DNA of 64,000 bases, from IMG/VR virus record IMGVR_UViG_3300045988_145635; one strand, 5' to 3'. The notes below the pieces were generated by a model, which saw only the letters and a program-made list of their open reading frames with translations, had not been told where the DNA came from and did not search any database. Origin of the DNA: a virus (lineage: Duplodnaviria > Heunggongvirae > Uroviricota > Caudoviricetes). Shown in pieces: positions 3,706-63,834 of the stretch (its first letter is position 1; the number at the start of each line of letters is the position of its first letter). Both the position numbers and the translations under genes were made by a program.

Positions 3706-3798
3706 CGGTTGTTAGTGCATATGCATTGACCGTCTTTTCGTAAGCAATTCATGTAACTAGAAAACAACTTGTTTTAACAAATAACAAAAGGAAAGCAC

Positions 3799-13767: not shown

Positions 13768-14868
13768 TCACACTGCGCGGAATGCGATTTCGCCAGGTAT
13801 TACTTCACCTTGCCAATACATTTGGGCAGCAACGCGATCTGCGAGGTCACGATAAATAGCCGTAAATTCGCTATCTGGACGACTAATAACGGTTGGTGTT
13901 CCGTTATCCAGATCTTCACGAAGAGAGATATGAAGTGGCATTTGGCCTAACAACTGCGTGTTGTATTTCTCGGCCAGTTTCTGTGCGCCACCGGTGCCAA
14001 AAATTGGCTCGTGATGACCGCAGTTACTGCAAATATGCACACTCATGTTTTCGACGATACCCAGTACCGGCACTTCGACTTTTTCGAACATCACAATGCC
14101 TTTCTTCGCATCGATCAGCGCGATGTCTTGCGGCGTAGTTACCACAACCGCACCAGTTACAGGAATGTTCTGCGCCAGCGTCAACTGAATATCACCAGTG
14201 CCCGGCGGCATATCGAGAACGAGATAGTCCAGATCAGGCCATAGAGTTTCCTGCAACATCTGCATCAGCGCCTTGCTGGCCATCGGTCCACGCCACACCA
14301 TTGCATTGTCGTCGGTGACCAGATAACCAATAGAGTTGGTTGCCAGGCCATGAGACATGATAGGTGCCATGTGAGTACCGTCCGGTGAGGTTGGACGTTG
14401 GTTTTCCGCGCCCAGCATGGTTGGAATTGATGGACCATAGATATCGGCATCCAAAATACCAACTTTCGCACCTTCAGCAGCCAACGCCAGTGCCAGATTT
14501 ACCGCCGTGGAGGATTTACCTACGCCGCCCTTGCCTGAGCTGACGGCGATAATGTTCTTAACGCCATTAATGCCTGGTTGGTTTTTGACGCGCTTAAGCG
14601 TGGCAATGTTGTACGACAGCTTCCAGTCAATAGCCTTTGCGCCAGTGATACGGAGCAGATCACCACTACATTGCTCTTTCAGGTCTTCAAAAGGCTTATT
14701 CCACACGAAAGGCATGATTAGTTCGACATGCAGTGTGTCATCCATCAACGCAACATGGTGTAACGCTTTAAGCGTAGTCAGGTTGTGTTTCAGGGTTGGG
14801 TGCTGAAAATTAGCCAGCGTACCGGCTACCATTGCTCTCAGGGCATCCGGCGATTTGGACTCGCTCAT
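13768..14868 (-). CDS. apbC: Fe-S cluster carrier ATPase ApbC (Mrp)
   Basis: 366 aa; Walker A SSGKGGVGKSS, CxxC (CSNCGH); near-identical over its length to enterobacterial Mrp as I recall it. Confidence 0.93.
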   Translation of the reverse strand: MSESKSPDALRAMVAGTLANFQHPTLKHNLTTLKALHHVALMDDTLHVELIMPFVWNKPFEDLKEQCSGDLLRITGAKAIDWKLSYNIATLKRVKNQPGINGVKNIIAVSSGKGGVGKSSTAVNLALALAAEGAKVGILDADIYGPSIPTMLGAENQRPTSPDGTHMAPIMSHGLATNSIGYLVTDDNAMVWRGPMASKALMQMLQETLWPDLDYLVLDMPPGTGDIQLTLAQNIPVTGAVVVTTPQDIALIDAKKGIVMFEKVEVPVLGIVENMSVHICSNCGHHEPIFGTGGAQKLAEKYNTQLLGQMPLHISLREDLDNGTPTVISRPDSEFTAIYRDLADRVAAQMYWQGEVIPGEIAFRAV

Positions 14869-15025
14869 CCCGTCTCCTTTATTTTAATTTGCGCAATTGT
14901 CGCCTTGTAGTGTACTCCAGCTACGACATTTAATCATTTATGAGAAATGCTGTTATCACATGGCAGACATAAGGCCATTTTGTTACTATCAAGCCCCTTT
15001 TCACTACAAAGAAGTAATGCCTACT

Positions 15026-17059
15026 ATGACCCAAGTCGCGAAGAAAATTCTGGTGACGTGCGCGCTGCCGTACGCTAACGGCTCAATCCACCTCGGCCAT
15101 ATGCTGGAGCACATCCAGGCTGATGTCTGGGTTCGTTACCAGCGAATGCGCGGCCACGAGGTTAATTTCATCTGTGCCGACGATGCCCACGGTACGCCGA
15201 TCATGCTGAAAGCGCAGCAGCTTGGTATCACACCGGAGCAGATGATTGGCGAAATGAGTCAGGAACACCAGACTGATTTCGCAGGCTTTAACATCAGCTA
15301 TGACAACTATCACTCGACGCACAGCGAAGAGAACCGTCAGTTGTCTGAGCTTATCTATACTCGCCTGAAAGAGAACGGTTTTATTAAAAACCGCACTATC
15401 TCTCAGTTGTACGACCCGGAAAAAGGCATGTTCCTGCCGGATCGTTTTGTAAAAGGCACCTGCCCGAAATGTAAAGCGCCAGATCAATACGGCGATAACT
15501 GTGAAGTCTGCGGCGCAACATATAGCCCGACTGAATTGATCGAGCCGAAATCGGTGGTTTCTGGCGCTACCCCGGTAATGCGTGATTCCGAACACTTCTT
15601 CTTTGATCTGCCTTCTTTCAGCGAAATGTTGCAGGCATGGACCCGCAGCGGCGCGTTGCAGGAGCAGGTGGCGAACAAAATGCAGGAATGGTTTGAATCC
15701 GGCCTGCAACAGTGGGATATCTCCCGCGATGCGCCTTACTTCGGTTTTGAAATTCCGGACGCGCCGGGCAAATATTTCTACGTCTGGCTGGACGCGCCGA
15801 TTGGCTACATGGGTTCCTTCAAGAATCTGTGCGACAAGCGCGGCGATACCACCAGCTTCGATGAATACTGGAAGAAAGACTCCACCGCCGAGCTGTACCA
15901 CTTCATCGGTAAAGATATTGTTTACTTCCACAGCCTGTTCTGGCCTGCCATGCTGGAAGGCAGCAACTTCCGCAAGCCGACCAACCTGTTTGTTCACGGC
16001 TATGTGACAGTGAACGGCGCGAAGATGTCCAAGTCTCGCGGTACCTTTATTAAAGCCAGCACCTGGCTGAATCATTTTGACGCCGACAGCCTGCGTTACT
16101 ACTACACTGCGAAACTCTCTTCGCGCATTGATGATATCGATCTCAACCTGGAGGATTTCGTTCAGCGCGTGAATGCCGATATCGTGAACAAAGTGGTTAA
16201 CCTGGCCTCCCGTAATGCAGGCTTTATCAACAAGCGTTTTGACGGCGTGCTGGCAAGCGAACTGGCTGACCCGCAACTGTACAAAACCTTTACTGATGCC
16301 GCTGAAGTGATTGGCGAAGCATGGGAAAGCCGCGAATTTGGTAAAGCTATCCGTGAAATCATGGCATTGGCTGACCTGGCTAACCGCTATGTCGATGAAC
16401 AGGCTCCGTGGGTGGTGGCGAAGCAGGAAGGGCGCGATGCCGATCTGCAGGCGATTTGCTCTATGGGCATTAACCTGTTCCGCGTGCTGATGACGTACCT
16501 GAAACCGGTACTGCCGAAACTGACTGAACGTGCAGAAGCATTCCTGAATACAGAACTGACCTGGGATGGTATCCAGCAACCGCTGCTGGGCCATAAAGTG
16601 AATCCGTTCAAGGCACTGTATAACCGTATCGATATGAAACAGGTGGAAGCACTGGTGGAAGCATCCAAAGAAGAAGTGAAAGCCACAGCCGCACCGGTAA
16701 CTGGCCCACTGGCTGACGACCCGATTCAGGAAACCATCACCTTTGACGACTTCGCCAAAGTTGACCTGCGTGTGGCGCTGATTGAAAACGCGGAGTTTGT
16801 TGAAGGCTCTGACAAACTGCTGCGTCTGACACTGGATCTCGGTGGGGAAAAGCGTAATGTCTTCTCAGGCATCCGTTCTGCTTATCCCGACCCACAGGCA
16901 TTGATTGGTCGTCACACCATTATGGTGGCTAACCTGGCTCCGCGTAAAATGCGCTTCGGTATCTCCGAAGGCATGGTGATGGCTGCTGGCCCCGGCGGGA
17001 AAGATATCTTCCTGTTAAGCCCGGATGCTGGTGCTAAACCTGGCCACCAGGTTAAGTAA
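15026..17059 (+). CDS. metG: Methionine--tRNA ligase
   Basis: HIGH motif (ANGSIHLGH), KMSKS motif, zinc knuckles CPKC/CEVC, C-terminal tRNA-binding domain; start chosen at [11 protein letters not shown] (the ORF-track start at 14897 is an upstream extension). Confidence 0.96.
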
Positions 17060-22497: not shown

Positions 22498-22546
22498 CTG
22501 AGAAGAGGGCCAGAAACGGCCCTTTCTCTATAGCCACCAGCTGCCG

Positions 22547-22626
22547 CAGGGAAATTTTCAGAAACGGCAAGGAACGCATTCATGAGCCGACGGGAAACGG
22601 CCAGGATTTTTTCGGGAAACGGCTGC
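22547..22626 (+). repeat. Second iteron-like cluster (GGGAAACGG / CAGAAACGG cores)
   Basis: Three to four repeats of the same core as 19361-19497; palindromes TAATCACATACGTGATTA and TGTGATTATGTGAAAAATCACG follow at 22760-22830. Confidence 0.5.
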
Positions 22627-23114
22627 ATTCGCCTTTGTGTAGAAAAAAACATCGGGAAGCTGGTGGAATCCAACCAGCGGTTGTCGGACAGGTGAGCGGG
22701 GAAAATTATGATGACTTTCGTCGCCTGAGACATCCAGATTTCTTTCGTAGCATAATCACATACGTGATTAAGTGGTGTGATTATGTGAAAAATCACGCGC
22801 ACATAATACGCGAGCGGATACGGAACAAAACAAAATGCCGATCCGCGCCGACAAATAAACGCGGATCATAAAGCAAGACTAAAAGCCAATGATTAACCAT
22901 ACACCATAACGCAATATAACGCGTTTTAAGCGCGTTAATGCGCTAAGTAATGGGTATATACTGGTAAGGATATAAAAGCTCGTCTGTGGCGTTATTTTGG
23001 CGCTTATTTTTATGTTGTTGGAGTGAGTCAAAGACAATAAAAAAAGCGCCATCATTGGCGCGTTATGGTGGAAGTATTGGAAACGAAAAAAGCGCCCATA
23101 GTGGGCGCTCGATT

Positions 23115-24848: not shown

Positions 24849-24864
24849 ATCAATATCCTAAAAC

Positions 24865-24916
24865 GGTAAAATTCGGTCAACCAAATCGAAGAAAACAAGA
24901 ATTTTTCTGCCGTCTT
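24865..24916 (-). repeat. Promoter/leader direct repeat, copy 1 (also carries a remnant 3' gene end)
   Basis: ~52 bp near-identical to 25231-25282. Confidence 0.6.
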
Positions 24917-24923
24917 CATACAT

Positions 24924-25220
24924 TTATCGGACTGACTCTACAGCCTTACGATTGGTGTCAAAAAGCGCATCAACGAACAGCAATGAAGAGTTGTTCAATT
25001 CACATGGTTCATAATTTTCCACCTGTTCACATAGTTGAGCGGTCTTACCTATGTTTATCCCTAGTTTTACTGCTGCTGAAAGTTGAAACATGCAAACTGG
25101 AATATTCTGAGACGTTGAGCATACGTCATGCATCAGCGACTTAATAATTGCAATATCATCCTTTGCATTGGCTGAAATTGAGTAAACTAAAAATAATGAT
25201 GTCAATAGTATCGATTTCAT
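24924..25220 (-). CDS. Small secreted Cys-containing protein (signal peptide), same architecture as 24549-24848
   Basis: MKSILLTSLFLVYSISANA signal-like N-terminus; 4-5 Cys. Confidence 0.5.
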   Translation of the reverse strand: MKSILLTSLFLVYSISANAKDDIAIIKSLMHDVCSTSQNIPVCMFQLSAAVKLGINIGKTAQLCEQVENYEPCELNNSSLLFVDALFDTNRKAVESVR

Positions 25221-25223
25221 AAC

Positions 25224-25748
25224 TCAAAAAGGTAAAATTCGTTCAACCCAATCGAAGAAAACAAGAATTTTTCTGCCGTCTTTCAACTTAAGTGTGACTA
25301 GGCAGGCATCAACGCCATCTGACGTTCCCTCAATTTCGCGGCCGTCTGCCATGTAGACCCTTATAGATTGGCCGTTTTGATAAGCCTTGCGACATATCTT
25401 AAAAAAATCACGACGTGATGGCTGGTTGTCTACATAGTCAGGGTGTATTGTTAGTCTCCCTTTGAAATCGTAATCAATGCCATCAATTACGCCTGATTCA
25501 ATTGTGCTAATGCGCTCAAGTGGGAGCCTTATACGATTTTCTTTGTCAAATGGAGTTGGACAAAGGTCAACTTTGTTACGAGATGACATGAGACCATAAA
25601 CGTACATGCAAAACACTTGGCCGTCTTCGAGAGTGACTCTTACAGGAAATTTAGCCCTCCGCCAGAAGAGCAAGGTGCGTTCAGCATGTTCGTAGTCTCG
25701 CGGCCATACTTCAGCCGGTATGCCGTAGGTGATATCTTTCGTCGTCAT
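25224..25748 (-). CDS. Hypothetical protein
   Basis: Start placed at the internal Met so the gene abuts the upstream lipoprotein gene. Confidence 0.5.
   Translation of the reverse strand: MTTKDITYGIPAEVWPRDYEHAERTLLFWRRAKFPVRVTLEDGQVFCMYVYGLMSSRNKVDLCPTPFDKENRIRLPLERISTIESGVIDGIDYDFKGRLTIHPDYVDNQPSRRDFFKICRKAYQNGQSIRVYMADGREIEGTSDGVDACLVTLKLKDGRKILVFFDWVERILPF
25231..25282 (-). repeat. Promoter/leader direct repeat, copy 2 (overlaps the 3' end of gene 25224-25748)
   Basis: ~52 bp near-identical to 24865-24916. Confidence 0.6.
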
Positions 25749-25752
25749 ATCA

Positions 25753-26172
25753 TTATAAAGTGGTTGGCAATATGTCCATTGTACCATCCCAGGTAGTGAA
25801 AACCCGATATGTTTTCGAATCGCCCTGCTTTAGCTTTATTTCTCGTTCCATCCTGGAGGGGTTAAATGCGCAAAGACCTGAACTTTCAATTGATGTCCCA
25901 ACGATCCACTCTCCTTCGTTAAGGTAGAAAGTTGCTTTTTCACCAGGTTCTAGCTTTGCAGCCGTTTCTCCATTGATGAAAATGGAAGCGTTACATGCAG
26001 AACCAACCAGCCCTTTGTCTCGAACTATTGTTAGACTAGACTCATGTGGTGTTTGATATTTAAATATTCTGCTTTGAGGTGCATCCTTTGCCTTTGAAAT
26101 AGATATAGACGAAGACGAACACCCAATTAGTGACGTGGTTAGCATTAGAATCATTAAGTTTTTTGCTTTCAT
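25753..26172 (-). CDS. Lipoprotein (candidate superinfection-exclusion type)
   Basis: Signal peptide with lipobox LIGC; function inferred only from being a prophage-encoded lipoprotein. Confidence 0.5.
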   Translation of the reverse strand: MKAKNLMILMLTTSLIGCSSSSISISKAKDAPQSRIFKYQTPHESSLTIVRDKGLVGSACNASIFINGETAAKLEPGEKATFYLNEGEWIVGTSIESSGLCAFNPSRMEREIKLKQGDSKTYRVFTTWDGTMDILPTTL

Positions 26173-29361: not shown

Positions 29362-29443
29362 AAACCTCTTTCCTTAGTGCCTTTTGTATGTTATTTGGCT
29401 ATTATAATAAGTAAGTGATTACTTAGTGGATTGTAGCAATAAA

Positions 29444-30124
29444 ATGGATGTAAAAATCACGATTTTGCAGGTTGATGTTGCCAACCTTCGCCCGAATACC
29501 TGGAACACCAATTCGGTTGGTGCGCAGAATTTTGAAAAACTGAAAGGTTCTATCGAAAAATTGGGCTTTTTTAAGCCAATTTTGGCTCGTGAACTTGAAG
29601 ATGGATTTTTTGAAATCCTCGGCGGCGAACATCGCTGGCGTGCCGCTATTGAGCAAGGAATTTCAACGGTTCCAGTGCTTTCTGTGGGCAAAATTAGCGA
29701 TGTCGTAGCTAAACAGATGTCACTGGTGGACAACGAGCGATACGGTGAAGACGACCAAATCGCATTGCAACGCTTCATTGAAGAAATTCAGTCAGAACTT
29801 GACTATCAACTGTCTGAAATCGCCCCGTATGACGACGAAATCTCGATGGTTTTAGCAAAAGAGGCGGCAATCGACCTTGAAGCACTGGAGGCGTTGTCTC
29901 GTGGTAGTGATGGGCCTGTCGATACCGACAAACGAGAGAAAACCGAACGTGTGGGGGCGGAACATCAGACCATGCGCTTCAAAGTAACTTTCGATGCGTC
30001 AGATCGTGTTGCAGAAACCATAAAAAACATCATCAAAGAGCAGGCTATTAACACCGGTAATGAAATGGAGAACGCTGGTGAGGCTCTGGTGTGGCTGGTC
30101 GACTACTACAAGGAGCGTATGTAA
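29444..30124 (+). CDS. ParB/Srx-fold (ParB-like nuclease domain) protein 1
   Basis: LRPNTWN and ILGGEHRWRAAIEQG match ParB N-domain boxes; motif B site upstream. Confidence 0.6.
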   Translation: MDVKITILQVDVANLRPNTWNTNSVGAQNFEKLKGSIEKLGFFKPILARELEDGFFEILGGEHRWRAAIEQGISTVPVLSVGKISDVVAKQMSLVDNERYGEDDQIALQRFIEEIQSELDYQLSEIAPYDDEISMVLAKEAAIDLEALEALSRGSDGPVDTDKREKTERVGAEHQTMRFKVTFDASDRVAETIKNIIKEQAINTGNEMENAGEALVWLVDYYKERM

Positions 30125-30792
30125 TGACCAAAAAGTTTGAAATCGTATATCGCGACCCGGCAGATCTTATTCCCTATGAGATGAATGCCAAAAAGCATGA
30201 TGAACAGCAGATCCGAGATCTGGCCGCAGCCATTAAAAAGCGCGGATTTGACCAGCCAATTACGGTCGATAAGAACGACGTAATTATTACTGGCCACGGC
30301 CGCCGTGAGGCTGCAATTTTTGCTGGACTTGAGCGCGTGCCGGTTATTGTTCGCGATGATCTGAGTGATGACGAGGTACGTGCAAAGCGCCTTGAAGATA
30401 ACCGACTTGCCAGCATTGATTACGATGCAATTAAGCTACAGAAAGAGCTTGAGTCGCTTGTTCTGGACGATATCGAGGTTTTCGGCTTCGAAGAGCGTGA
30501 GTTGAATGTTCTCGTTGGCAGTATGACAGAAGAAATGGACACCGACTCGCTAGTTATCGATCTTGGCGAAGAAACTAAACGACAGAAGGATGAACACACC
30601 GAGATCAGTCGTGAAGTTGCAGCGGAAGAAGTACGTGTTGTCGACGTATTGGGCTTTAAAACGCTCCCTGCTGGCTCTGCCATTGTTGTTGGTGATTTGC
30701 TTGCCCATATGGAAGAAATGACGGGAGAAAGCGGGGTAGACGCATTTGTGGCATATGCGGAGAAGATCTCTTCCGGGGAGATGGCTGCATGA
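30124..30792 (+). CDS. ParB/Srx-fold protein 2
   Basis: IITGHGRREAAIFAGLERVPVIV; TAATG coupling to the upstream gene. Confidence 0.6.
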   Translation: MTKKFEIVYRDPADLIPYEMNAKKHDEQQIRDLAAAIKKRGFDQPITVDKNDVIITGHGRREAAIFAGLERVPVIVRDDLSDDEVRAKRLEDNRLASIDYDAIKLQKELESLVLDDIEVFGFEERELNVLVGSMTEEMDTDSLVIDLGEETKRQKDEHTEISREVAAEEVRVVDVLGFKTLPAGSAIVVGDLLAHMEEMTGESGVDAFVAYAEKISSGEMAA

Positions 30793-31454
30793 GCAAATAC
30801 ATCATCAACGTATCGTTTCAGACACGCGTAAATAAAACCACGCGCACGTTGGAAATCGCTGAGTCGTTCGGGCTTGGCCTGGACGAAAAAGAGTGGACGC
30901 TTTACGACAATCTGGAGCTGGAAGTGAAGCAGGGCGATGTGGTGTACATCACCGGCCAATCCGGTTCCGGCAAATCCGTTGTGCTGCGCGAGTTGCAACG
31001 ACAGATGAAGGATGAAGGGCTGTCTGTAGCCTCCATCGATGATTTTACCTTCGATAATGAGGTTAACGTCATCGATCAGTTGGGCAAAACGACCAGCGAT
31101 GCGCTTGGGTTGTTATCTATGGCTGGTCTGAACGATGCATATCTGTTTGTTCGCAAGCCTTCTGAAATGTCAGACGGCCAGAAATATCGTCTCAAGATTG
31201 CCAAACTGATTGAGTCAGGCGCTAAAGTGTGGGCTGCTGACGAGTTCGGCGCTGTTCTCGACCGTGTAACCGCTCAGGTTGTGGCGTCTAACCTCCAGCG
31301 TGCCGCTCGAAAGGTTGGTGCGACGGTAATGGTGGCGACGACTCACGAAGACCTGAAGAACGCGCTGCGCCCGGATATGCAGATCACCAAGCACTACAAA
31401 GAACGCGTGAAGGTGGAATATCACAATGGTAGTCATGATGAGGTTCATTTATGA
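30789..31454 (+). CDS. Minimal ABC-type ATPase
   Basis: Walker A GQSGSGKS, signature-like MSDGQKYRLKIAKL, Walker B VWAADEFGAVLD, H-loop-like ATTHE; ATGA coupling. Confidence 0.6.
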   Translation: MSKYIINVSFQTRVNKTTRTLEIAESFGLGLDEKEWTLYDNLELEVKQGDVVYITGQSGSGKSVVLRELQRQMKDEGLSVASIDDFTFDNEVNVIDQLGKTTSDALGLLSMAGLNDAYLFVRKPSEMSDGQKYRLKIAKLIESGAKVWAADEFGAVLDRVTAQVVASNLQRAARKVGATVMVATTHEDLKNALRPDMQITKHYKERVKVEYHNGSHDEVHL

Positions 31455-32341
31455 CGGACATCATCATTAAACGCTACCGCCCTGAAGAGTTTCCGCGTCA
31501 TCTGGATTTTCTGGAGCGAATGACTGTCACAAAGGGAACTGTAGAGGACTGGCACGCTCTTAAGTCGCTTCACTACAAAACAGACGGCAAACCTTTCGCG
31601 CCAACTTACTATCGCTGCGAACTTGATGACCGTCTGGTGGGCGTCGTGGTTATGGCTTACCCGAAACTACTGTTGGCACCTCGCCACCGCATGTTTCCTA
31701 AGTTGAAACCAACCACTAATACCACCGTGGCTAACCAGTACTGGGGTCGGTACGTGAATAACAACTTTGCGGTGATCAGTCGCTCAGTTGTGGATACTCA
31801 GTATCGTGGCGTAGGCGTCTCTTATCGAATGATTAACCTGGTTAGCAGGATGCATGACCGGCCAATCATTGAGATCCAGTCCTCGATGAGCAAATACAAT
31901 CCCTTCGCCATGAAAGCAGGGTTTAAGTTCATCCGCCCTGAGCGACCGAAGAGCTATGAAAGTGCACTGCGTGTATTCCAGCGCCATTTCCGTTCCGACC
32001 CGGGTGATAACGAGGCGATCGTCAAAGAGTTGTTCGCAATGAGCGAGTCTCGTCGTCGCCGTGCACTGCGTGATCTGGTGGCGGACTACCACAAGAACAG
32101 TTCCCTGGCAAAAGCTGGGCGGAATCGTGGCACGACGATTCAGGACATTGCCGACAGTCTGGTGGACGAGGCCAGCATTGTGAAGCTGCTCAAGGACATT
32201 CACAACCTGAGCTTTACGTCTCCGTTGTATGGTGTGTACCGAAACCCTGACTTTGGTCGTCGACTGCCTGACACGCTGCCACTGCTGGCATTCGACAAAC
32301 AACCTTTGGATAAACCGTTAGAAATTGCTTTACCGGCATAA
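31451..32341 (+). CDS. GNAT-fold acetyltransferase-like protein with C-terminal extension
   Basis: VGVVVMAYP ... TQYRGVGVS ... NPFAMKAGFK resembles the GNAT acetyl-CoA-binding core; ATGA coupling. Confidence 0.45.
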   Translation: MTDIIIKRYRPEEFPRHLDFLERMTVTKGTVEDWHALKSLHYKTDGKPFAPTYYRCELDDRLVGVVVMAYPKLLLAPRHRMFPKLKPTTNTTVANQYWGRYVNNNFAVISRSVVDTQYRGVGVSYRMINLVSRMHDRPIIEIQSSMSKYNPFAMKAGFKFIRPERPKSYESALRVFQRHFRSDPGDNEAIVKELFAMSESRRRRALRDLVADYHKNSSLAKAGRNRGTTIQDIADSLVDEASIVKLLKDIHNLSFTSPLYGVYRNPDFGRRLPDTLPLLAFDKQPLDKPLEIALPA

Positions 32342-55190: not shown

Positions 55191-58100
55191 ATGTGGTACA
55201 GGGAAGGTACTATCACATTTACACAGGGTAGCAATACTCTGGTTGGGGCAGGGACAGCCTGGAACGTAACAGCTAATGGTGTGTTGCCGGGGATGATCGT
55301 CATTGGCCCCGACAATAAGCTGTATGAGATCAAGCGCGTAATAAGCGATACGAATATTGTTCTCTCAGAACCTTATACCGGCGAAACTCAGTCTGAGGTT
55401 CCGTGCCGAATCATTACGACCTATGAAGGCGACTTAACACAGTTTAGCGCGCGCTTTACAGCACTAATGTCGCGTATGTCGGCTGATTCCAAGTCTATGC
55501 GCAGTTGGTTGACTGCTCTGGATGAGGTGACAATCGAGCGTGAAGACGGTACAGAAGTAACCGTTAAGCCGCTAATGCAGATCGTCAACGAGCACAACGA
55601 AAACGTTGAGTGGTATAAAAATAACACTGACGCGATTGATGCTGCTGGCGACAAAGCTCGTGAGGCAGCGGCCAGTGCTGCCGCAGCAGCAGAAAGCGCC
55701 AATACCGCTGGAGAAAAAGCCTCTCAAGCGTCTCAAAGTGCATCCGCTGCGGCATCCTCACAAAGTGCCGCAAGTGCGAGTGCAACTGCTGCGAAAAAAT
55801 CTGAAACGAATGCCGCAGCGTCACAACAATCAGCAGCCACTTCTGCATCCACCGCGACCACGAAAGCGTCAGAAGCTGCCACCTCAGCCCGGGATGCGGC
55901 GGCCTCAAAAGAGGCAGCGAAATCATCAGAAACGAGCGCAGCCTCGAGCGCCAGTAATGCCGCTTCCTCGGCAACGGCGGCAGGAAATTCCGCGAAGGCG
56001 GCAAAAACGTCCGAGACGAACGCCAGGTCTTCTGAAACGGCAGCGGGACAGAGCGCCTCGGCTGCGGCAGGCTCAAAAACAGCGGCTGCGTCGTCTGCCA
56101 GTGCCGCGTCAACAAGTGCCGGGCAGGCCTCAGCCAGTGCCACCGCCGCCGGAAAATCGGCAGAAAGTGCCGCATCGTCTGCTTCAACAGCCACAACGAA
56201 GGCTGGCGAAGCCACTGAACAGGCCAGCGCAGCAGCGAGGTCTGCTTCCGCAGCGAAGACATCCGAAACGAACGCGAAAGCGTCGGAAACCCGTGCAGAA
56301 TCCTCAAAAACGGCAGCCGCATCGTCCGCCAGTTCGGCAGCGTCATCGGCATCATCTGCGTCTGCTTCAAAAGATGAGGCGACCAGACAGGCGTCAGCAG
56401 CGAAGGGCAGCGCCACGACGGCATACACGAAAGCAACAGAGGCGGCAGGCAGTGCGACGGCAGCATCTCAGAGCAAAACTGCTGCTGAATCCGCTGCGAC
56501 CCGTGCGGAAGCTGCTGCTGATCGTGCTGAAGAGATTGCCGGTGCAGTTGCGATGGAAGACGCAAGCCTTACAACTAAAGGTGTTGTGAAACTTAGCAGT
56601 GCTGTCGACAGCACCAGTGAATCGCTGGCCGCAACGCCAAAAGCAGTTAAAGTAGTCAATGACAATGCGAACAGCAGGGTGCCATCTAACCGAAAAATTA
56701 ACGGGAAAGCACTGACTGCGGATATCACATTAACGCCGAAAGATATTGGTACTTTAAATTCAATAACGATGTCTTTCTCTGGCGGGGCCGGGTGGTTCAA
56801 ACTGGCTACTGTTACAATGCCACAAGCGAGTTCCATCGTTTACATCGCATTGATTGGTGGCGCTGGTTACAACGTCGGCTCCCCACATCAGGCAGGCATT
56901 TCAGAACTGGTTCTACGAGCAGGCAATGGAAACCCCAAAGGGATTACAGGTGCTTTGTGGAAGCGTACAGCTGTCGGATTAACGAATTTCGCCTGGATCA
57001 ACACATCCGGCGATACATATGATATTTACGTTGAGATTGGCAATTATGCGACTCGTGTAAATATCCATTGGGATTGTACTGCAAATGCGACAGTTTCTAT
57101 TTATACATCGCCAACATATTCAGCTAGTAAGCCTTCCAGCGTTACCGATGGTGTTGTTTATACGATGTATAGCACACATCAGAAACCGACGCCGTTAGAT
57201 ATTGGAGCACTGCCAACAACCGGAGGAACAGTTTCAGGTCCGTTGTCTGTTACTGGTGGGATCACCGGAACATTAAATGGTAATGCAAGTACAGCAACGA
57301 AATTGCAGACGGCAAGATCTATCGGTGGAGTTGGTTTCGACGGTTCTGCAAATATCAACCTTCCAGGTGTAAATACTACGGGTAATCAGAACACCACTGG
57401 TAATGCTGCAACTGCTACAAAACTTCAGACGGCAAGAACTATCGGCGGCGTGAGCTTTGATGGTACTGCGAATATTAATTTGCCAGGTGTTAATACGACT
57501 GGTAATCAGAATACAACGGGCAACGCGGCTACTGCTACGAAGTTGCAGACTGCGCGTACTATCAATGGGGTGTCGTTTGACGGCTCGGCAAATATTTCCT
57601 TGTCGCCAACAAATATAGGTTGCCCGGCATCTCCTACTGGTTGGTTAACTACAGGAAGTAATGGCGGAGCAATAACAACAGCACAGTTAGTGACGTTATT
57701 GCAAAATAATGGTGCTTTTAATGCAAAGGCATGGATAGCGCGTTGTGCTTGGGCGTATGCAAATAGTGCATCCATACCAGACAGCGAAACAGGATGCGGC
57801 ATTATTCCACTGGCTGGCGCAGTTATTGAGGTATTTAATAACGGTAGTAGCTCAAACAATTATACGATCCGCATAACAACGGCCACAACGACAAGTGTTT
57901 CCGGTGCTCTCACTAATGCGGAGTTTATCTATGTATTTAACGGGACGAGCTATTCACCAGGATGGCGCAGAGCGTATAACACTAAAAACAAGCCTACTGC
58001 GGCTGATGTCGGAGCTTTACCACTATCTGGAGGAGCGTTAACTGGCGGATTAACGTCTTCTGGTGAGATCGTTTCAAAATATGCAAATGGTTTCCGCATT

Positions 58101-59216
58101 GCTTACGGTAGCTTTGGGTTCTTTATCCGTAATGATGGATCGAACACATATTTCATGCTAACAGCATCAGGAAACACATTAGGTTCATGGAACGGTTTGC
58201 GACCTATTACAATTAATAATACCAGCGGTGCTGTGTCCATTGGTAATGGACTAAATGTTACTGGTGGCGTAAATGGTAGTTTGAACGGTAATGCTTCAAC
58301 AGCTACGAAGTTGCAAACTGCTAGAAAAATAAGCGGCGTGTCTTTTGATGGTTCTGCTGATATAACACTAACAGCTGCAAATGTATCTGCTTTTGCTCGA
58401 CGCGCTACTGGAACTTATGCCGATACTAGTGGTGCGGTCCCGTGGAATGCCGAATCAGGTGCGTATAATGTTACACGCTCCAGGGATTCTTATATCGTTG
58501 CAAATTTTTATATAGGCGTAGGTAGTTGTCGGACTCTCCAAATCCGAGCGCATTATAAAAATGGTGGATTGTATTACCGTTCATCACGTGATGGCTATGG
58601 GTTCGAAGAGGACTGGACTCAGATATATACTAAAAAAGACAGCATCCCAGGTGTGAATGCAGATGGGAACCAGAACACTACTGGTAATGCTGCCACCGCC
58701 ACAAAATTGCAGACAGCAAGGAAAATTGCTGGTGTGGCGTTTGATGGCTCTGCCGATATTACTTTGACTGCGGCTAACCTTAATGCTTATACGAAAACAG
58801 AGGTAACGAATCTTCTAAGTTCCTATGTGAAGAGCAGTGCTCTTCCAAGCATGACTGTGCGAACTTCCTCTATTTCAGGTGGGGATATGGGCATGAGTTT
58901 GTCCACATTCATTAGCCACCTTAAATCAAATGGGGCGTTTAGCAAAAGATATTGGATTGGCTTTGGCGATGCTATGGGATTCAATGCTGGCAGTATCAAC
59001 AATATAACGGGATTTGGTGCTGTAGAATTAGCAGAATCTATAATCGAAGTTTTTAATCTACCTAACGGTGATTATACAATTCGTTTAACAACGTCACATA
59101 AAGCTGATTACGGTGGAGTGACAAACGCAATCCTCGTTTATCACTACCGCAGTAATAGAAGTCCGTCAGGTCAATGGCTGAAATTTGCCGGTACTGTTGG
59201 GGCAACAAGTAACTGA
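55191..59216 (+). CDS. Side tail fibre protein
   Basis: Ala/Ser-rich low-complexity region followed by repeated GNASTATKLQTAR.IGGV.FDGSANI phage-fibre repeats. Confidence 0.75.
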   Translation: MWYREGTITFTQGSNTLVGAGTAWNVTANGVLPGMIVIGPDNKLYEIKRVISDTNIVLSEPYTGETQSEVPCRIITTYEGDLTQFSARFTALMSRMSADSKSMRSWLTALDEVTIEREDGTEVTVKPLMQIVNEHNENVEWYKNNTDAIDAAGDKAREAAASAAAAAESANTAGEKASQASQSASAAASSQSAASASATAAKKSETNAAASQQSAATSASTATTKASEAATSARDAAASKEAAKSSETSAASSASNAASSATAAGNSAKAAKTSETNARSSETAAGQSASAAAGSKTAAASSASAASTSAGQASASATAAGKSAESAASSASTATTKAGEATEQASAAARSASAAKTSETNAKASETRAESSKTAAASSASSAASSASSASASKDEATRQASAAKGSATTAYTKATEAAGSATAASQSKTAAESAATRAEAAADRAEEIAGAVAMEDASLTTKGVVKLSSAVDSTSESLAATPKAVKVVNDNANSRVPSNRKINGKALTADITLTPKDIGTLNSITMSFSGGAGWFKLATVTMPQASSIVYIALIGGAGYNVGSPHQAGISELVLRAGNGNPKGITGALWKRTAVGLTNFAWINTSGDTYDIYVEIGNYATRVNIHWDCTANATVSIYTSPTYSASKPSSVTDGVVYTMYSTHQKPTPLDIGALPTTGGTVSGPLSVTGGITGTLNGNASTATKLQTARSIGGVGFDGSANINLPGVNTTGNQNTTGNAATATKLQTARTIGGVSFDGTANINLPGVNTTGNQNTTGNAATATKLQTARTINGVSFDGSANISLSPTNIGCPASPTGWLTTGSNGGAITTAQLVTLLQNNGAFNAKAWIARCAWAYANSASIPDSETGCGIIPLAGAVIEVFNNGSSSNNYTIRITTATTTSVSGALTNAEFIYVFNGTSYSPGWRRAYNTKNKPTAADVGALPLSGGALTGGLTSSGEIVSKYANGFRIAYGSFGFFIRNDGSNTYFMLTASGNTLGSWNGLRPITINNTSGAVSIGNGLNVTGGVNGSLNGNASTATKLQTARKISGVSFDGSADITLTAANVSAFARRATGTYADTSGAVPWNAESGAYNVTRSRDSYIVANFYIGVGSCRTLQIRAHYKNGGLYYRSSRDGYGFEEDWTQIYTKKDSIPGVNADGNQNTTGNAATATKLQTARKIAGVAFDGSADITLTAANLNAYTKTEVTNLLSSYVKSSALPSMTVRTSSISGGDMGMSLSTFISHLKSNGAFSKRYWIGFGDAMGFNAGSINNITGFGAVELAESIIEVFNLPNGDYTIRLTTSHKADYGGVTNAILVYHYRSNRSPSGQWLKFAGTVGATSN

Positions 59217-60869: not shown

Positions 60870-61391
60870 TTATTCTTCGAACAATTTTTCGATAGATTTT
60901 GTAGGATAGAACAAAGAACGCTCGTTGTTACCAACCAGCTGGATAAAGCCTAAACTTTTATAAAACGCCTTGGCTTTGTCATTTAACGCCTCAACGAAAA
61001 GTCCATGAATGCCTACAGCAAGAGATGCATTGTACACAACGCGCATTGCATGTGTTACAAGCATTGAGCCAAATCCTTGACCTTGAAGGGACTTGTCCAA
61101 AGCCAGCCTACCCAAAGTAACACTTGGAACATTCCGATAAGGAACCTTCTTTTGTTTGCTTCTTGAAGGTAAGGACTCCTTTTCAAAACAACTACCTGAC
61201 AAAGTGTAATATCCTAACACTTTTGGCCTTTCTTCTTGAGTGCAAAGCACATAAGCACGAAGAATTTTTCCCTCATGCTGCCTTTTTAAGTGGTTGGCTA
61301 AAAAGGCGTTTAGTGACTCTTCGCCGCAATCAAAACCGTTTAGATCATAATCTTTCTCTCCAGAGAAAATCTCTATCGTTGTATTGCTCAC
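60870..61391 (-). CDS. GNAT-family acetyltransferase toxin (TacT/AtaT/ItaT-like)
   Basis: 173 aa; GNAT core (QGQGFGSMLV); paired with an upstream DUF1778-type gene. Confidence 0.7.
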   Translation of the reverse strand: MSNTTIEIFSGEKDYDLNGFDCGEESLNAFLANHLKRQHEGKILRAYVLCTQEERPKVLGYYTLSGSCFEKESLPSRSKQKKVPYRNVPSVTLGRLALDKSLQGQGFGSMLVTHAMRVVYNASLAVGIHGLFVEALNDKAKAFYKSLGFIQLVGNNERSLFYPTKSIEKLFEE

Positions 61392-61398
61392 GAGTAAA

Positions 61399-61668
61399 CT
61401 ACTCCATGCTTTTCAGACGATCAGCAGCTCGTTTCAGCTTGTCGTTCGGTGCCGGAGGATTGCTTATAGCGTCCATAACCAGATTCCAGGACTCTTCACT
61501 CAGAACCAGTCTTCGATGTTGCTCTATAACTTTCACGGCACGTTCAGATGCACTGCTAACCATAAACTGAGTAATGCTCTGGTTAGACATTGCGGCAGCT
61601 TCCTCGATGATGCTTTTATCGTCATCGGTTAATCTCAAATCGATGCGCTGCTTTTTTAGTGCTGACAT
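61399..61668 (-). CDS. DUF1778-type RHH antitoxin (TacA-like)
   Basis: ~89 aa from the AGGAGG-preceded ATG; immediately upstream of the GNAT gene on the same strand. Confidence 0.65.
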   Translation of the reverse strand: MSALKKQRIDLRLTDDDKSIIEEAAAMSNQSITQFMVSSASERAVKVIEQHRRLVLSEESWNLVMDAISNPPAPNDKLKRAADRLKSME

Positions 61669-61934
61669 GTATTCCTCCTGATGGCCGTGATGTAGGAAGG
61701 CCATCAATCTCCTCTGTTCAAACTGAGTTTTCGACTCAAAAATTACTTTAAAAGGCTATAGCCCATTACGTGTGCATTATCAAATTGTGTACGGCATATC
61801 ACCGTACTTGTAATATAGAGGTCATTGTTACTTTTTTCAACAGACAAATACAAGCTATGATTGCCAATTGTTAATCACAACCTACCATTTAACCTTTACA
61901 CCGCAGCCGTAGGCATTTAGGCTATATCACATAT

Positions 61935-61954
61935 AAGAAAACAAGTTGTTTCAG
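61935..61954 (+). promoter_or_regulatory. Operator motif A site upstream of the ParA-like gene
   Basis: AAGAAAACAAGTTGTTTCAG palindrome 33 nt before the start. Confidence 0.5.
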
Positions 61955-61986
61955 ACGATAATTATATACGCAAAGGGAACTCTCCA

Positions 61987-62655
61987 ATGACCAAGATCTT
62001 TGTGGTTGGCGGCACAAAGGGCGGGCCTGGCAAATCCACCGTTGCCCAGCAAATTGCCGTTTGCCTTAAAGTCAAAAAGAAGAAGAAGGTTTATATCACT
62101 GATATAGATATTCAGCGCACGACAACAAGCTGGTGTGAAGACCGTCGACAGAACGAAGACCTTGAGCTGATTCCTTTTGCATACGTTCAGGATGACATCA
62201 TTAAGCACCTAAAATCGCTTCAGGGTAGAGCTGAGTATGTAGTGGTAGATGCTGGTGGCTTTGACTCCGAAATTCAGCGACAAGCGATGCTGATGGCCGA
62301 CGTTATCATTATCCCGCTTCGTCCTAAGCGTCGTGATTTGAAATCTCTGCGTGACATTGATCCTATTATCGACAATGTTCGTAATGTAAACGATAAAGTG
62401 AAGGTCCGCGCGGTCATGAACCAGTGCCCGGCTTTGCCATCACAAGTGTCTCGCATTCTGGCGGCTAAAGAGATTGTTGAGACGTTTGGCATCGAGTCTG
62501 CGCCAGTCAATCTATATAACCGCAACGTCTATGATGATGCGGAAGAGTCTGGTCGTTCTATCTTTGAAATGACCGGTAGCGAGCGCGACAAAAAGGCGGA
62601 AGCCGAGTTTGAAGAATTTGTAGATTATCTGTTGAGTCTGGAGGAAAAAGAATAA
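61987..62655 (+). CDS. ParA/ParF-type partition ATPase
   Basis: Deviant Walker A GGTKGGPGKST; 222 aa. Confidence 0.8.
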   Translation: MTKIFVVGGTKGGPGKSTVAQQIAVCLKVKKKKKVYITDIDIQRTTTSWCEDRRQNEDLELIPFAYVQDDIIKHLKSLQGRAEYVVVDAGGFDSEIQRQAMLMADVIIIPLRPKRRDLKSLRDIDPIIDNVRNVNDKVKVRAVMNQCPALPSQVSRILAAKEIVETFGIESAPVNLYNRNVYDDAEESGRSIFEMTGSERDKKAEAEFEEFVDYLLSLEEKE

Positions 62656-63014
62656 TGTCCATGAAAATGGGTGACCTAGCAAAGCGCAAAGAGCCTGATG
62701 CACCGGCTAAGAACACAACTCCTTTGCGCCAACCAGTCAGACCACAGGGACGCCCGACTCGTGGCAAAGAGAAAATTAAAAGCCGCACAATGTCACTGGA
62801 GGACGAATACTTCGAACTGCTGGAGATGATGAAGTTCATCCCTCGCTTCGAGAAGTTCACTCGTTCTGACGTGATTCGTGCTGCTATTTTCCATCTTGCG
62901 GAGAAGACACCGCAGGAAATCGAGGACATCGTGAAACTTAACGAGGCGATCACCGCTGCCGATGTCACGATGCGTACCGATGAAATCAAACGAGAGTTGA
63001 TGAAGAAAGGTTAA
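62655..63014 (+). CDS. Small RHH-type centromere-binding protein (ParG-like)
   Basis: TAATG-coupled to the ParA-like gene; basic N-terminal tail plus C-terminal beta-alpha-alpha pattern. Confidence 0.55.
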   Translation: MSMKMGDLAKRKEPDAPAKNTTPLRQPVRPQGRPTRGKEKIKSRTMSLEDEYFELLEMMKFIPRFEKFTRSDVIRAAIFHLAEKTPQEIEDIVKLNEAITAADVTMRTDEIKRELMKKG

Positions 63015-63018
63015 AAAT

Positions 63019-63051
63019 CATGCATTGGCGCGTACATTGCGCCAATGCATG
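63019..63051. terminator. Bidirectional hairpin terminator between convergent genes
   Basis: 13-bp perfect stem CATGCATTGGCGC / GCGCCAATGCATG. Confidence 0.55.
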
Positions 63052-63066
63052 AGTACAATGTCAGTT

Positions 63067-63834
63067 TTATGCCGCGCTAACACTATGTTCAGTCCTAACC
63101 ACCCCAACCTTCACAAAAGGGCTACCGTAGCTTGGTGGCTTCTTGATTAATTTGCCTACATACAGTTTTCTAATATGCTCATCGGCTATTCTGCCAACAA
63201 ATTCATAACGTTTTGTGTCGGGGCCAAGAGCTATATCCCTTGTAAAGTACTGCTGAGAACCGGCTTTGACCCAGCATTCAATCTGATAAACTTCCATTAT
63301 CAGCCCACCATATGTAGCGTAGGCATATTTGAGATTCTCGTCTCTTGGAACCTTTGCCCATACGCCACGCGTAGCTTCATATAATGCCAGAGCGGACATT
63401 CCTGACTTGTAGGTGCTGTTTAGCAGGAAGGCAAGACCGGCGTGCTCAGGAGCAATTTCAGTTTCCTCTTGCAGCACTAAGTGATGGTAGGCGTCCAGTG
63501 ATATTCTGCCCATCATGGAACCACTTCCTCGTACCTTATTCGTAAGCTCTCCGACCCCCATAAGGTCGATGCATGTCGCCTCAACAAGTTTGGCTGTGGT
63601 TTCATCCATACCATGACGAAGTATATCTATGCCTAATTTTTTATTAGCCAAAAGTTCTTTGATCCGCATGGATTTGGGAGAGTCATCGGGATACTTGATG
63701 TGATCGAGACAACGAGTCGATTTGCCTTTTCCTATGTAAAACGGTCTTTTCATCTTGTCTTCTGTATCATAGAGACAGTAAACATAGTATTTAGCCTTAT
63801 CCAATGATCTCGCGTATACCGATAAATCGTCCAT
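63067..63834 (-). CDS. GIY-YIG nuclease-domain protein with uncharacterised C-terminal domain
   Basis: N-terminal YYVYCLYD ... PFYIGKGKSTRCLDH fits the GIY / YIG / R / H pattern. Confidence 0.55.
   Translation of the reverse strand: MDDLSVYARSLDKAKYYVYCLYDTEDKMKRPFYIGKGKSTRCLDHIKYPDDSPKSMRIKELLANKKLGIDILRHGMDETTAKLVEATCIDLMGVGELTNKVRGSGSMMGRISLDAYHHLVLQEETEIAPEHAGLAFLLNSTYKSGMSALALYEATRGVWAKVPRDENLKYAYATYGGLIMEVYQIECWVKAGSQQYFTRDIALGPDTKRYEFVGRIADEHIRKLYVGKLIKKPPSYGSPFVKVGVVRTEHSVSAA

Follow-up and report, generated by a model that had tools for sequence, protein, structure and literature searches.

A probable partition cassette of an SSU5-supergroup phage-plasmid, built from a ParF-like ATPase and a small unannotated partner protein

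Two adjacent genes at positions 61987 to 63014 of the tailed-phage sequence IMGVR_UViG_3300045988_145635 (Caudoviricetes; IMG/VR) raise the question of whether they form an active partition system and whether the element that carries them is maintained as a low-copy plasmid. The window, here and below, is the whole 64,000-nucleotide stretch of this DNA that was analyzed. A sequence-only reading had proposed that a deviant-Walker-A ParA coupled to a small ribbon-helix-helix (RHH) protein, together with iterons and a toxin-antitoxin pair, indicates a phage-plasmid. We found that a ParF-like ATPase and a small partner conserved along with it are translationally coupled and that the module is inherited as a unit across the SSU5 supergroup of phage-plasmids. 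With a probability of roughly 80%, the locus is the active-partition cassette of such a phage-plasmid, built like a type Ib system of a ParA and a centromere-binding protein.

The first gene, parA, spans 61987 to 62655 on the plus strand and encodes a 222-aa type Ib-like Walker ATPase without an N-terminal DNA-binding domain; its ribosome-binding site, read from the sequence, is AAGGGA at 61973 to 61978 (plus strand), 8 nt before the ATG. The second, at 62655 to 63014 on the same strand, encodes a 119-aa putative centromere-binding protein, referred to here as the partner. Stop and start overlap in a TAATG (62653 to 62657, plus strand), as read from the sequence, in which the TAA of parA occupies 62653 to 62655 and the ATG of the partner gene 62655 to 62657, and a Shine-Dalgarno sequence, GGAGG (62640 to 62644), lies 10 nt 5' of that ATG. 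Both the deviant-Walker-A ParA of 222 aa, with KGGPGKST in its open reading frame (ORF), and the TAATG coupling that the sequence-only reading had described were thus present. Tight coupling was kept in all relatives examined, with either a 1- to 2-nt gap or an 8-nt overlap, and the partner adjoined parA in every one of 797 plasmid records. In RefSeq records the annotation pipeline PGAP often places the partner start 6 nt downstream of the TAATG start, at Met3. An antisense ORF at 62558 to 62989 was without support and was disregarded.

The element that carries the pair was identified by comparison with known genomes. The window and the genome of Escherichia phage Cyrano were colinear and about 98% identical (1 to 32679 corresponds to Cyrano 76798 to 108379, and 32680 to 63012 to Cyrano 1 to 30332), and its identity to E. 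coli plasmids of the SSU5 supergroup was 99%. The window is a 64-kb piece of a phage-plasmid of about 108 kb and carries virion, lysis and many early genes along with par, including the siphovirus genes for terminase, portal, capsid and tail. In the literature, SSU5, pHCM2, pSLy3, pKpn, pCAV and pMT1 are grouped as a single supergroup of siphovirus phage-plasmids, which carry partition genes and replicons of the IncFIB type (PMC7969092, PMC12977533, PMC11652158). The par interval matched 11 phage records, among them Salmonella phage SSU5 at 86%, and 723 complete plasmid records from Klebsiella, Escherichia, Enterobacter, Salmonella and Citrobacter, the best of them 99.3% identical; 689 of the 723 were typed as nonmobilizable. 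When 5,426 complete E. coli genomes were searched for the module (61880 to 63014), 264 contained it, at 265 places, every one of which was on a plasmid and none on a chromosome. These sequence comparisons support assignment of the element to the SSU5 supergroup, in the E. coli "pSLy3-like" lineage, and support the low-copy episome reading, which was already known. The episomal claim of the sequence-only reading is therefore upheld by the kinship to Cyrano and SSU5 and by the plasmid records; an element found only in integrated form would have spoken against that claim, and the relatives showed the reverse. The iterons on which the same reading had leaned did not hold up as part of the window: RepA, four 21-bp iterons and a DnaA-box cluster are at Cyrano 60.2 to 61.9 kb, outside the stretch that the window covers.

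The ATPase has a deviant Walker A motif, G8-G-T-K11-G-G-P-G-K16-S-T18, with KGGPGKST at residues 11 to 18, and matched the Pfam families AAA_31, MipZ, CbiA and VirC1. Its best solved-structure relatives were ParF/ParA of TP228 (E 3e-10; aligned residues 9 to 199), in which the Walker A' motif ITDIDIQ aligned with VVDTDPQ of ParF and the Walker B motif YVVVDAGG with FAIVDGAG. A match to PHROG 164, "ParA-like partition protein," was obtained at 2e-51. Type Ib ParA proteins are recognized by a length of about 200 to 230 aa, a deviant Walker A of the form KGGxxK[ST] and the lack of an N-terminal DNA-binding domain, all of which were found here; the size and the missing N-terminal domain place this ParA with the type Ib ATPases.

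No second partition NTPase was found in the window. A 366-aa protein encoded at 13768 to 14868 (minus strand), annotated "MinD" in Cyrano, was considered as a second ParA and rejected, as it is ApbC/Mrp (Pfam NUBPL-type ParA, 2e-102) from captured host DNA. The captured locus spans 13768 to 17059 and consists of apbC/mrp and metG (14897 to 17059); in each of the 5,426 E. coli genomes the chromosome has an apbC-metG locus with which this segment shares about 90% identity, and the segment also occurs at 223 plasmid places.

The partner is, by sequence comparison, an orphan family. None of 13 family members gave a Pfam domain even at E≤10, sequence and profile searches of the PDB returned nothing significant, and hhalign against ParG gave a probability of only 0.1%. 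The protein was assigned to PHROG 5111, "unknown function." A word-indexed search yielded 25 clusters, and an exhaustive profile search with a hidden Markov model over 1.84 billion representatives yielded 18 matches, all from elements of the SSU5-like kind; a profile of the core only added no homologue with an annotated domain. Four distant members (25 to 42% identity) still directly follow ParA, 3' of the tail-fiber/lysis block. The label in all records, RefSeq included, was "hypothetical protein," except for one toxin label.

With regard to the RHH assignment of the sequence-only reading, the 119-aa plus-strand ORF exists as described, and the RHH fold was not confirmed by Pfam, PDB, hhalign or AlphaFold. 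The fold is plausible from the sequence pattern and from three weak matches. The succession of strand, helix A, loop and helix B in RHH proteins is matched by the motif SRTMSLEDEYFELL...FTRSDVIRAAI, and the polar and hydrophobic residues are spaced in an RHH-like way, with SRTMSL followed by EDEYFELL, a loop and TRSDVIRAAI. The weak matches were to CopG (hhalign probability 2.5%), to NCBIfam aCcr1 (E 2.3e-4), an RHH transcription factor family (PMC9976878), and to the RHH protein ORF56 of pRN1 (E about 1); they were obtained independently and all fell in one shared register. AlphaFold models built from 13 and 17 sequences had a mean predicted local distance difference test score (pLDDT) of 65 and 71, respectively. 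In both, residues 1 to 46 were unstructured (pLDDT below 50 for residues 1 to 23) and helices spanned residues 48 to 59, 70 to 82, 86 to 97 and 101 to 118; neither contained a strand, and a fold search gave no RHH confirmation. The layout is thus a disordered basic N-terminal tail, an RHH-like core (approximately residues 41 to 82) and two further helices. Two alignments showed invariant residues I41, R44, S47, E49, R70, D72, R75 and L81 and near-invariant blocks IKSRTMSxEDEY and (F/L)(T/S)RSDVIRAA. They also showed a conserved N-terminal motif, G-(D/G)-L-(A/G)-K-(K/R) (GDLAKR here), followed by a variable, indel-rich linker, and a basic stretch, PQGRPTRGK.

The single toxin label comes from the Cyrano record, in which the partner (CYRAN_29) is a "RelE/ParE putative toxin," and no domain evidence for that label was found. 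It nonetheless raises the alternative that the 119-aa ORF has nothing to do with partition, whether as a RelE/ParE-type toxin or in some other role, which would leave ParA as an orphan or with a positioning role other than partition. We regard this as extremely improbable. The 13 family members had no Pfam ParE or RelE match at the same permissive threshold and there was no PADLOC match, the predicted architecture of a long disordered basic tail and helices is unlike that of RelE/ParE, no antitoxin partner is present, and the gene is universally coupled to parA. We think that the Cyrano label is wrong.

Partition by an adjacent small protein also has to be weighed against partition by proteins encoded elsewhere. 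An operon at 29426 to 32341 encodes two ParB_N-only proteins, a 221-aa ABC-type ATPase and a 296-aa protein directly 5' of the gene for the small terminase subunit. ParA could pair with these two ParB_N proteins (29426 to 30124 and 30091 to 30792), which are 32 kb away, as a canonical ParABS system, with the adjacent ORF as an unrelated regulator. Both matched Pfam ParB_N and TIGR00180 parB_part, the latter below its cut-off, and both are annotated "ParB" in relatives and have been used as an SSU5 marker (bioRxiv 10.1101/2025.09.12.675607). However, neither has a detectable helix-turn-helix (HTH) or dimerization domain, their genes share an operon with two other ATPase-like genes next to terminase, and this small ParA belongs to the type whose partners are small proteins other than ParB. 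Translational coupling and co-divergence likewise point to the gene that adjoins parA.

Stably inherited 62-kb plasmids of Escherichia albertii bear directly on this choice. They keep ParA (99.5% identity), the partner (99.2%), the toxin-antitoxin pair described below and RepB, and they lack terminase, capsid and tail genes and both ParB_N genes. Retention of the pair by plasmids without the ParB_N genes favors the adjacent pair as a self-sufficient partition unit, and the ParB_N proteins were rejected as partners of ParA on this ground; a ParABS system with them is a distinctly unlikely alternative. The operon at 29426 to 32341 was conserved in all full-size relatives; from the E. albertii plasmids it has disappeared together with the virion genes, and it probably serves packaging or DNA handling rather than partition. 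The E. albertii plasmids themselves (CP043239, 62 kb, and at least 7 sibling records) are virion-less derivatives that persist in several bird isolates; they also carry an extra RelE/ParE pair and added hdeAB genes, and they present a phage-plasmid decaying into a plain plasmid.

In a system like that of TP228, a cis-acting site is expected 5' of parA and overlapping the promoter, and type Ib centromeres consist of arrays of direct or inverted repeats (PMC5016525). An upstream alignment of the window, SSU5, pHCM2, an E. hormaechei plasmid and a K. pneumoniae plasmid showed that only about 105 bp before the ATG align; farther 5', the sequences of the five lineages are unrelated. This conserved block (61880 to 61986, plus strand) should hold the promoter, the operator and the 5' untranslated region and, as judged from the alignment, an upstream centromere could lie nowhere else. 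Positions 61886 to 61953, approximately, hardly varied between lineages, although the par genes themselves share only about 80% identity, a pattern that argues for dense cis function. Promoter-scan matches for par fell at or outside the edge of the block; by eye, a candidate promoter is formed by TTTACA (61895 to 61900), a 17-nt spacer and TAGGCT (61918 to 61923). The sole symmetric element in the block is a 13-bp palindrome, AAACAAGTTGTTT, at 61939 to 61951, which is preceded by AAGA and is a putative operator at or just 3' of the par transcription start. This palindrome, referred to as motif 1, was at −48 of parA in five lineages, and AAACATCTTGTTT was found at −42 in a divergent Klebsiella plasmid, CP027615.

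On the right side, similarity to Cyrano and SSU5 stopped at 63012, directly after the partner stop codon, and a perfect 14-bp inverted repeat with a T-run at 63018 to 63052 (minus strand), the terminator of the convergent PD-T4-3 gene described below, marks the boundary of the par module. The sharp boundaries on both sides define 61880 to 63014 as the heritable unit. Relative to CP027615, ParA and the partner were 69% and 47.5% identical, versus 82% for the capsid protein and 91% for TerL; the faster divergence of the par proteins fits incompatibility-driven diversification.

A scan of the full genome of a relative for k-mer clusters picked up the RepA iterons and DnaA boxes, which are outside the window, and a repeat-rich intergenic region at 22500 to 23100 of the window. 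This region was considered as a universal centromere and rejected, since it was conserved in the E. albertii plasmid and not in the Klebsiella or Moellerella relatives. This 600-bp noncoding stretch has four direct GAAACGGC repeats (22513 to 22622), four ATCAC pentamers in the order → ← ← → (22755 to 22796), ATAACGC repeats and several GC hairpins, and these repeats may be the iterons that the sequence-only reading had in mind.

The palindrome of the par promoter is not confined to par. Motif 1, AAACAA-N-TTGTTT, had 27 strand-matches in the window versus 3.3 expected and 18 sites in the full Cyrano genome versus 0.35 expected, with about 20 sites in CP027615 and 9 in the 62-kb E. albertii derivative. 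The 13-mer starts in the window at 3762, 4491, 9032, 17144, 17195, 18635, 19830, 20315, 21219, 21982, 32736, 32761 and 61939, and the motif stands at or next to the extended −10 promoters of most plus-strand operons. Two layouts were recognized. One has the palindrome, preceded by AAGA, 8 to 10 nt 3' of a −10-like element (often an extended TGnGATAAT), as at the par, DnaB-helicase, ribonucleotide reductase beta-subunit and terminase promoters; the other has it about 19 nt 5' of the −10 element. Motif 1 was common to the E. coli, Salmonella and Klebsiella lineages and absent from a Moellerella relative. From this distribution, the sites probably serve a global phage regulator as its operators, with the par operon in that regulon. 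A search for the binder, which compared ORF presence and absence across four genomes and then screened the small candidates with Pfam, did not bring out any clear regulator. Expression of par, whose promoter carries one copy, would probably be tied to the phage-wide regulator, and segregation would then be linked to the phage control circuit.

A second dispersed palindrome, motif 2 (TAAGTA-NN-TACTTA), had approximately 14 sites in Cyrano and 10 to 11 in the Klebsiella relative. Its positions in the window (640, 7835, 20720, 29412, 36207, 41702, 48209 and 55133) are mostly in intergenic gaps of structural or late operons, for example just 5' of the tail-fiber and ParB_N genes, and it may be a late-promoter or activator site.

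Several points weigh against a type Ib partition cassette. The direct or inverted repeat array of type Ib centromeres was not found upstream of parA; repeat finders applied to 61650 to 63100 returned only chance-level pairs, and Tandem Repeats Finder, run on the window, returned nothing near par. Heptads resembling AAACAAG were only weakly enriched 5' of parA in five lineages (per-lineage shuffle P of 0.006 to 0.10) and are a lead only, because the motif was picked post hoc. Against NCBIfam ParA_partition, ParA scored 115 bits (E 2e-33), below the equivalog cut-off of 180 bits; as far as its sequence goes, membership in the ParA superfamily is clear, while equivalog status is not. The operator of the par promoter is common to replication and packaging promoters, and if the lysogeny repressor binds it, expression of par in the plasmid state would need explaining. 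Finally, experiments on stabilization, DNA binding or ATPase activity of the par locus were not found in the searchable literature, nor was a paper on the mechanism or operators of SSU5 or pHCM2 par.

The shared palindrome raises a further alternative, namely, that the partner is both the centromere-binding protein and the binder of all motif 1 sites, a global regulator like KorB or omega for which the dispersed sites serve as centromeres. Omega binds heptads, an inverted pair of which can be seen in a 13-bp palindrome, and dispersed sopC sites serve as centromeres in the phage-plasmid N15. The one symmetric element available upstream of par is a copy of the dispersed palindrome, such palindromes persist in the virion-less E. 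albertii plasmids, and centromere-binding proteins of type Ib systems normally autoregulate at their own promoter (PMC5016525). The comparison with a Moellerella wisconsensis phage-plasmid points the other way. That element has retained the partner, in which the putative DNA-reading strand is the same (IKSRTVSMEDEY ... SRSDVFRAAL), yet it is without motif 1 palindromes, having 2 chance-like matches in 100 kb, none of them near par, and a different repeated 14-mer instead. Two other distant relatives have no palindrome at the par promoter, and sites at or 3' of the extended −10 promoters of replication and packaging operons are the classic layout of a dedicated phage repressor. The Moellerella comparison argues against the partner as the binder of motif 1, although not conclusively, and we consider a global regulator of this kind unlikely. 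Similarly doubtful is a more specific proposal, that the partner founds an undescribed family of centromere-binding proteins, in which a ParB-like GxLxK(K/R) peptide at the N terminus is combined with an RHH-like core and two additional helices, and that it uses the dispersed AAACAANTTGTTT palindromes (at about 18 promoters) instead of a local repeat array. If that were true, the partition complex would double as a silencer of lytic operons and combine control like that of KorB or omega with an N15-like dispersed centromere.

The preferred reading remains an active-partition cassette of the type Ib kind, and a working mechanism can be proposed for it. The partner would dimerize through its RHH-like core and bind DNA in the conserved upstream block, where it would autoregulate the operon and form the partition complex, by analogy with type Ib systems (PMC5016525). 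Its flexible N-terminal tail, with the GDLAKR motif and the basic stretch, would stimulate the ATPase of ParA. Nucleoid-bound dimers of ATP-ParA, or a gradient of them, would then pull or ratchet the copies of the approximately 108-kb low-copy prophage-plasmid apart before division.

The genes on either side of the cassette differ from lineage to lineage. The toxin-antitoxin pair that the sequence-only reading had noticed is real and consists of a TacA-like antitoxin (61399 to 61707, minus strand; Pfam TacA1, 5e-26) and a TacT-like toxin of the GNAT type, identified by GNAT domain matches (60870 to 61391, minus strand); both adjoin par and are outside the cassette. The TacAT pair was absent at this position from SSU5, pHCM2 and the Klebsiella relatives, which marks it as variable cargo and not part of the partition module. 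Downstream, 63067 to 63834 (minus strand) encodes a GIY-YIG protein (Pfam LEM-3-like) that matched the anti-phage defense gene PD-T4-3 (PADLOC, E 1e-23) and replaces the gene found there in Cyrano and SSU5. Both par flanks are hot spots of variable cargo, with TacAT here and ApeA/HEPN, Abi_2 and DUF2971 in relatives.

Two features elsewhere in the window were also recorded. An ORF at 25224 to 25787 (minus strand) gave a full-length match to Pfam Flag1_repress (E 4e-80), an FljA-like repressor of phase-1 flagellin. The ORF is flanked by two copies of a 64-nt repeat (24853 to 24916 and 25219 to 25282) with 91% identity to each other. The domain match suggests that the phage-plasmid could alter flagellar expression of its host. 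The gene for a 1341-aa P1 S-like tail fiber contains, at 57278 to 58801, in-frame repeats of 120 nt in 2.2 to 2.5 tandem copies plus two diverged copies, which encode the repeated segment "NGNASTATKLQTAR...".

SSU5-type phage-plasmids are common, being present in about 5% of complete E. coli genomes, as pHCM2 in Salmonella Typhi and as many Klebsiella plasmids, and they carry resistance genes (PMC9600943). Their inheritance therefore matters for surveillance and for ideas about plasmid curing. The element family and its ParA had already been catalogued, so that the finding itself adds little. The residual interest is in the partner, in the lack of a visible conventional centromere and in the link of the par promoter to the palindrome regulon. 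The partner family is unannotated everywhere and mislabeled as a toxin in one phage record; "putative centromere-binding protein" would be a reasonable new name for the partner.

Known systems share parts of this arrangement. The type Ia system of P1 (ParA/ParB/parS) likewise segregates a low-copy plasmid prophage. P1 ParA is large and has an N-terminal regulatory DNA-binding domain, and P1 ParB is a ParB_N/HTH protein; in contrast, the ParA described here has 222 aa and begins directly with Walker A, and the adjacent partner has no ParB_N domain. Delta/omega of pSM19035, IncC/KorB of RK2 and SopAB of N15 either control a large number of promoters besides serving partition or have dispersed centromeres, and the palindrome of the par promoter, which recurs at many other promoters of its replicon, recalls them. 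KorB and SopB are ParB_N/HTH proteins, whereas the partner has no match to ParB_N or HTH. ParF/ParG/parH of TP228 resembles the cassette in having a small ParA-type ATPase without an N-terminal domain, whose gene is directly followed by that of a small protein bearing a flexible tail at its N terminus. ParG differs in having 76 aa, compared to 119 aa and two extra C-terminal helices in the partner, with which it has no detectable sequence or profile similarity, and TP228 has a tetramer-box/repeat array 5' where a single 13-bp palindrome is found here. The cassette thus has the ATPase and the gene order of type Ib and departs from that type in that no repeat-array centromere was found. The par genes of SSU5, pHCM2 and their relatives are the same locus, with 86% DNA identity to SSU5_033/034, approximately 93% protein identity to the pHCM2 partner and the same synteny, with the lysis cassette on one side and the DnaB helicase gene on the other. 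They differ in the flanking cargo, which in the present E. coli lineage is TacAT upstream and PD-T4-3 downstream.

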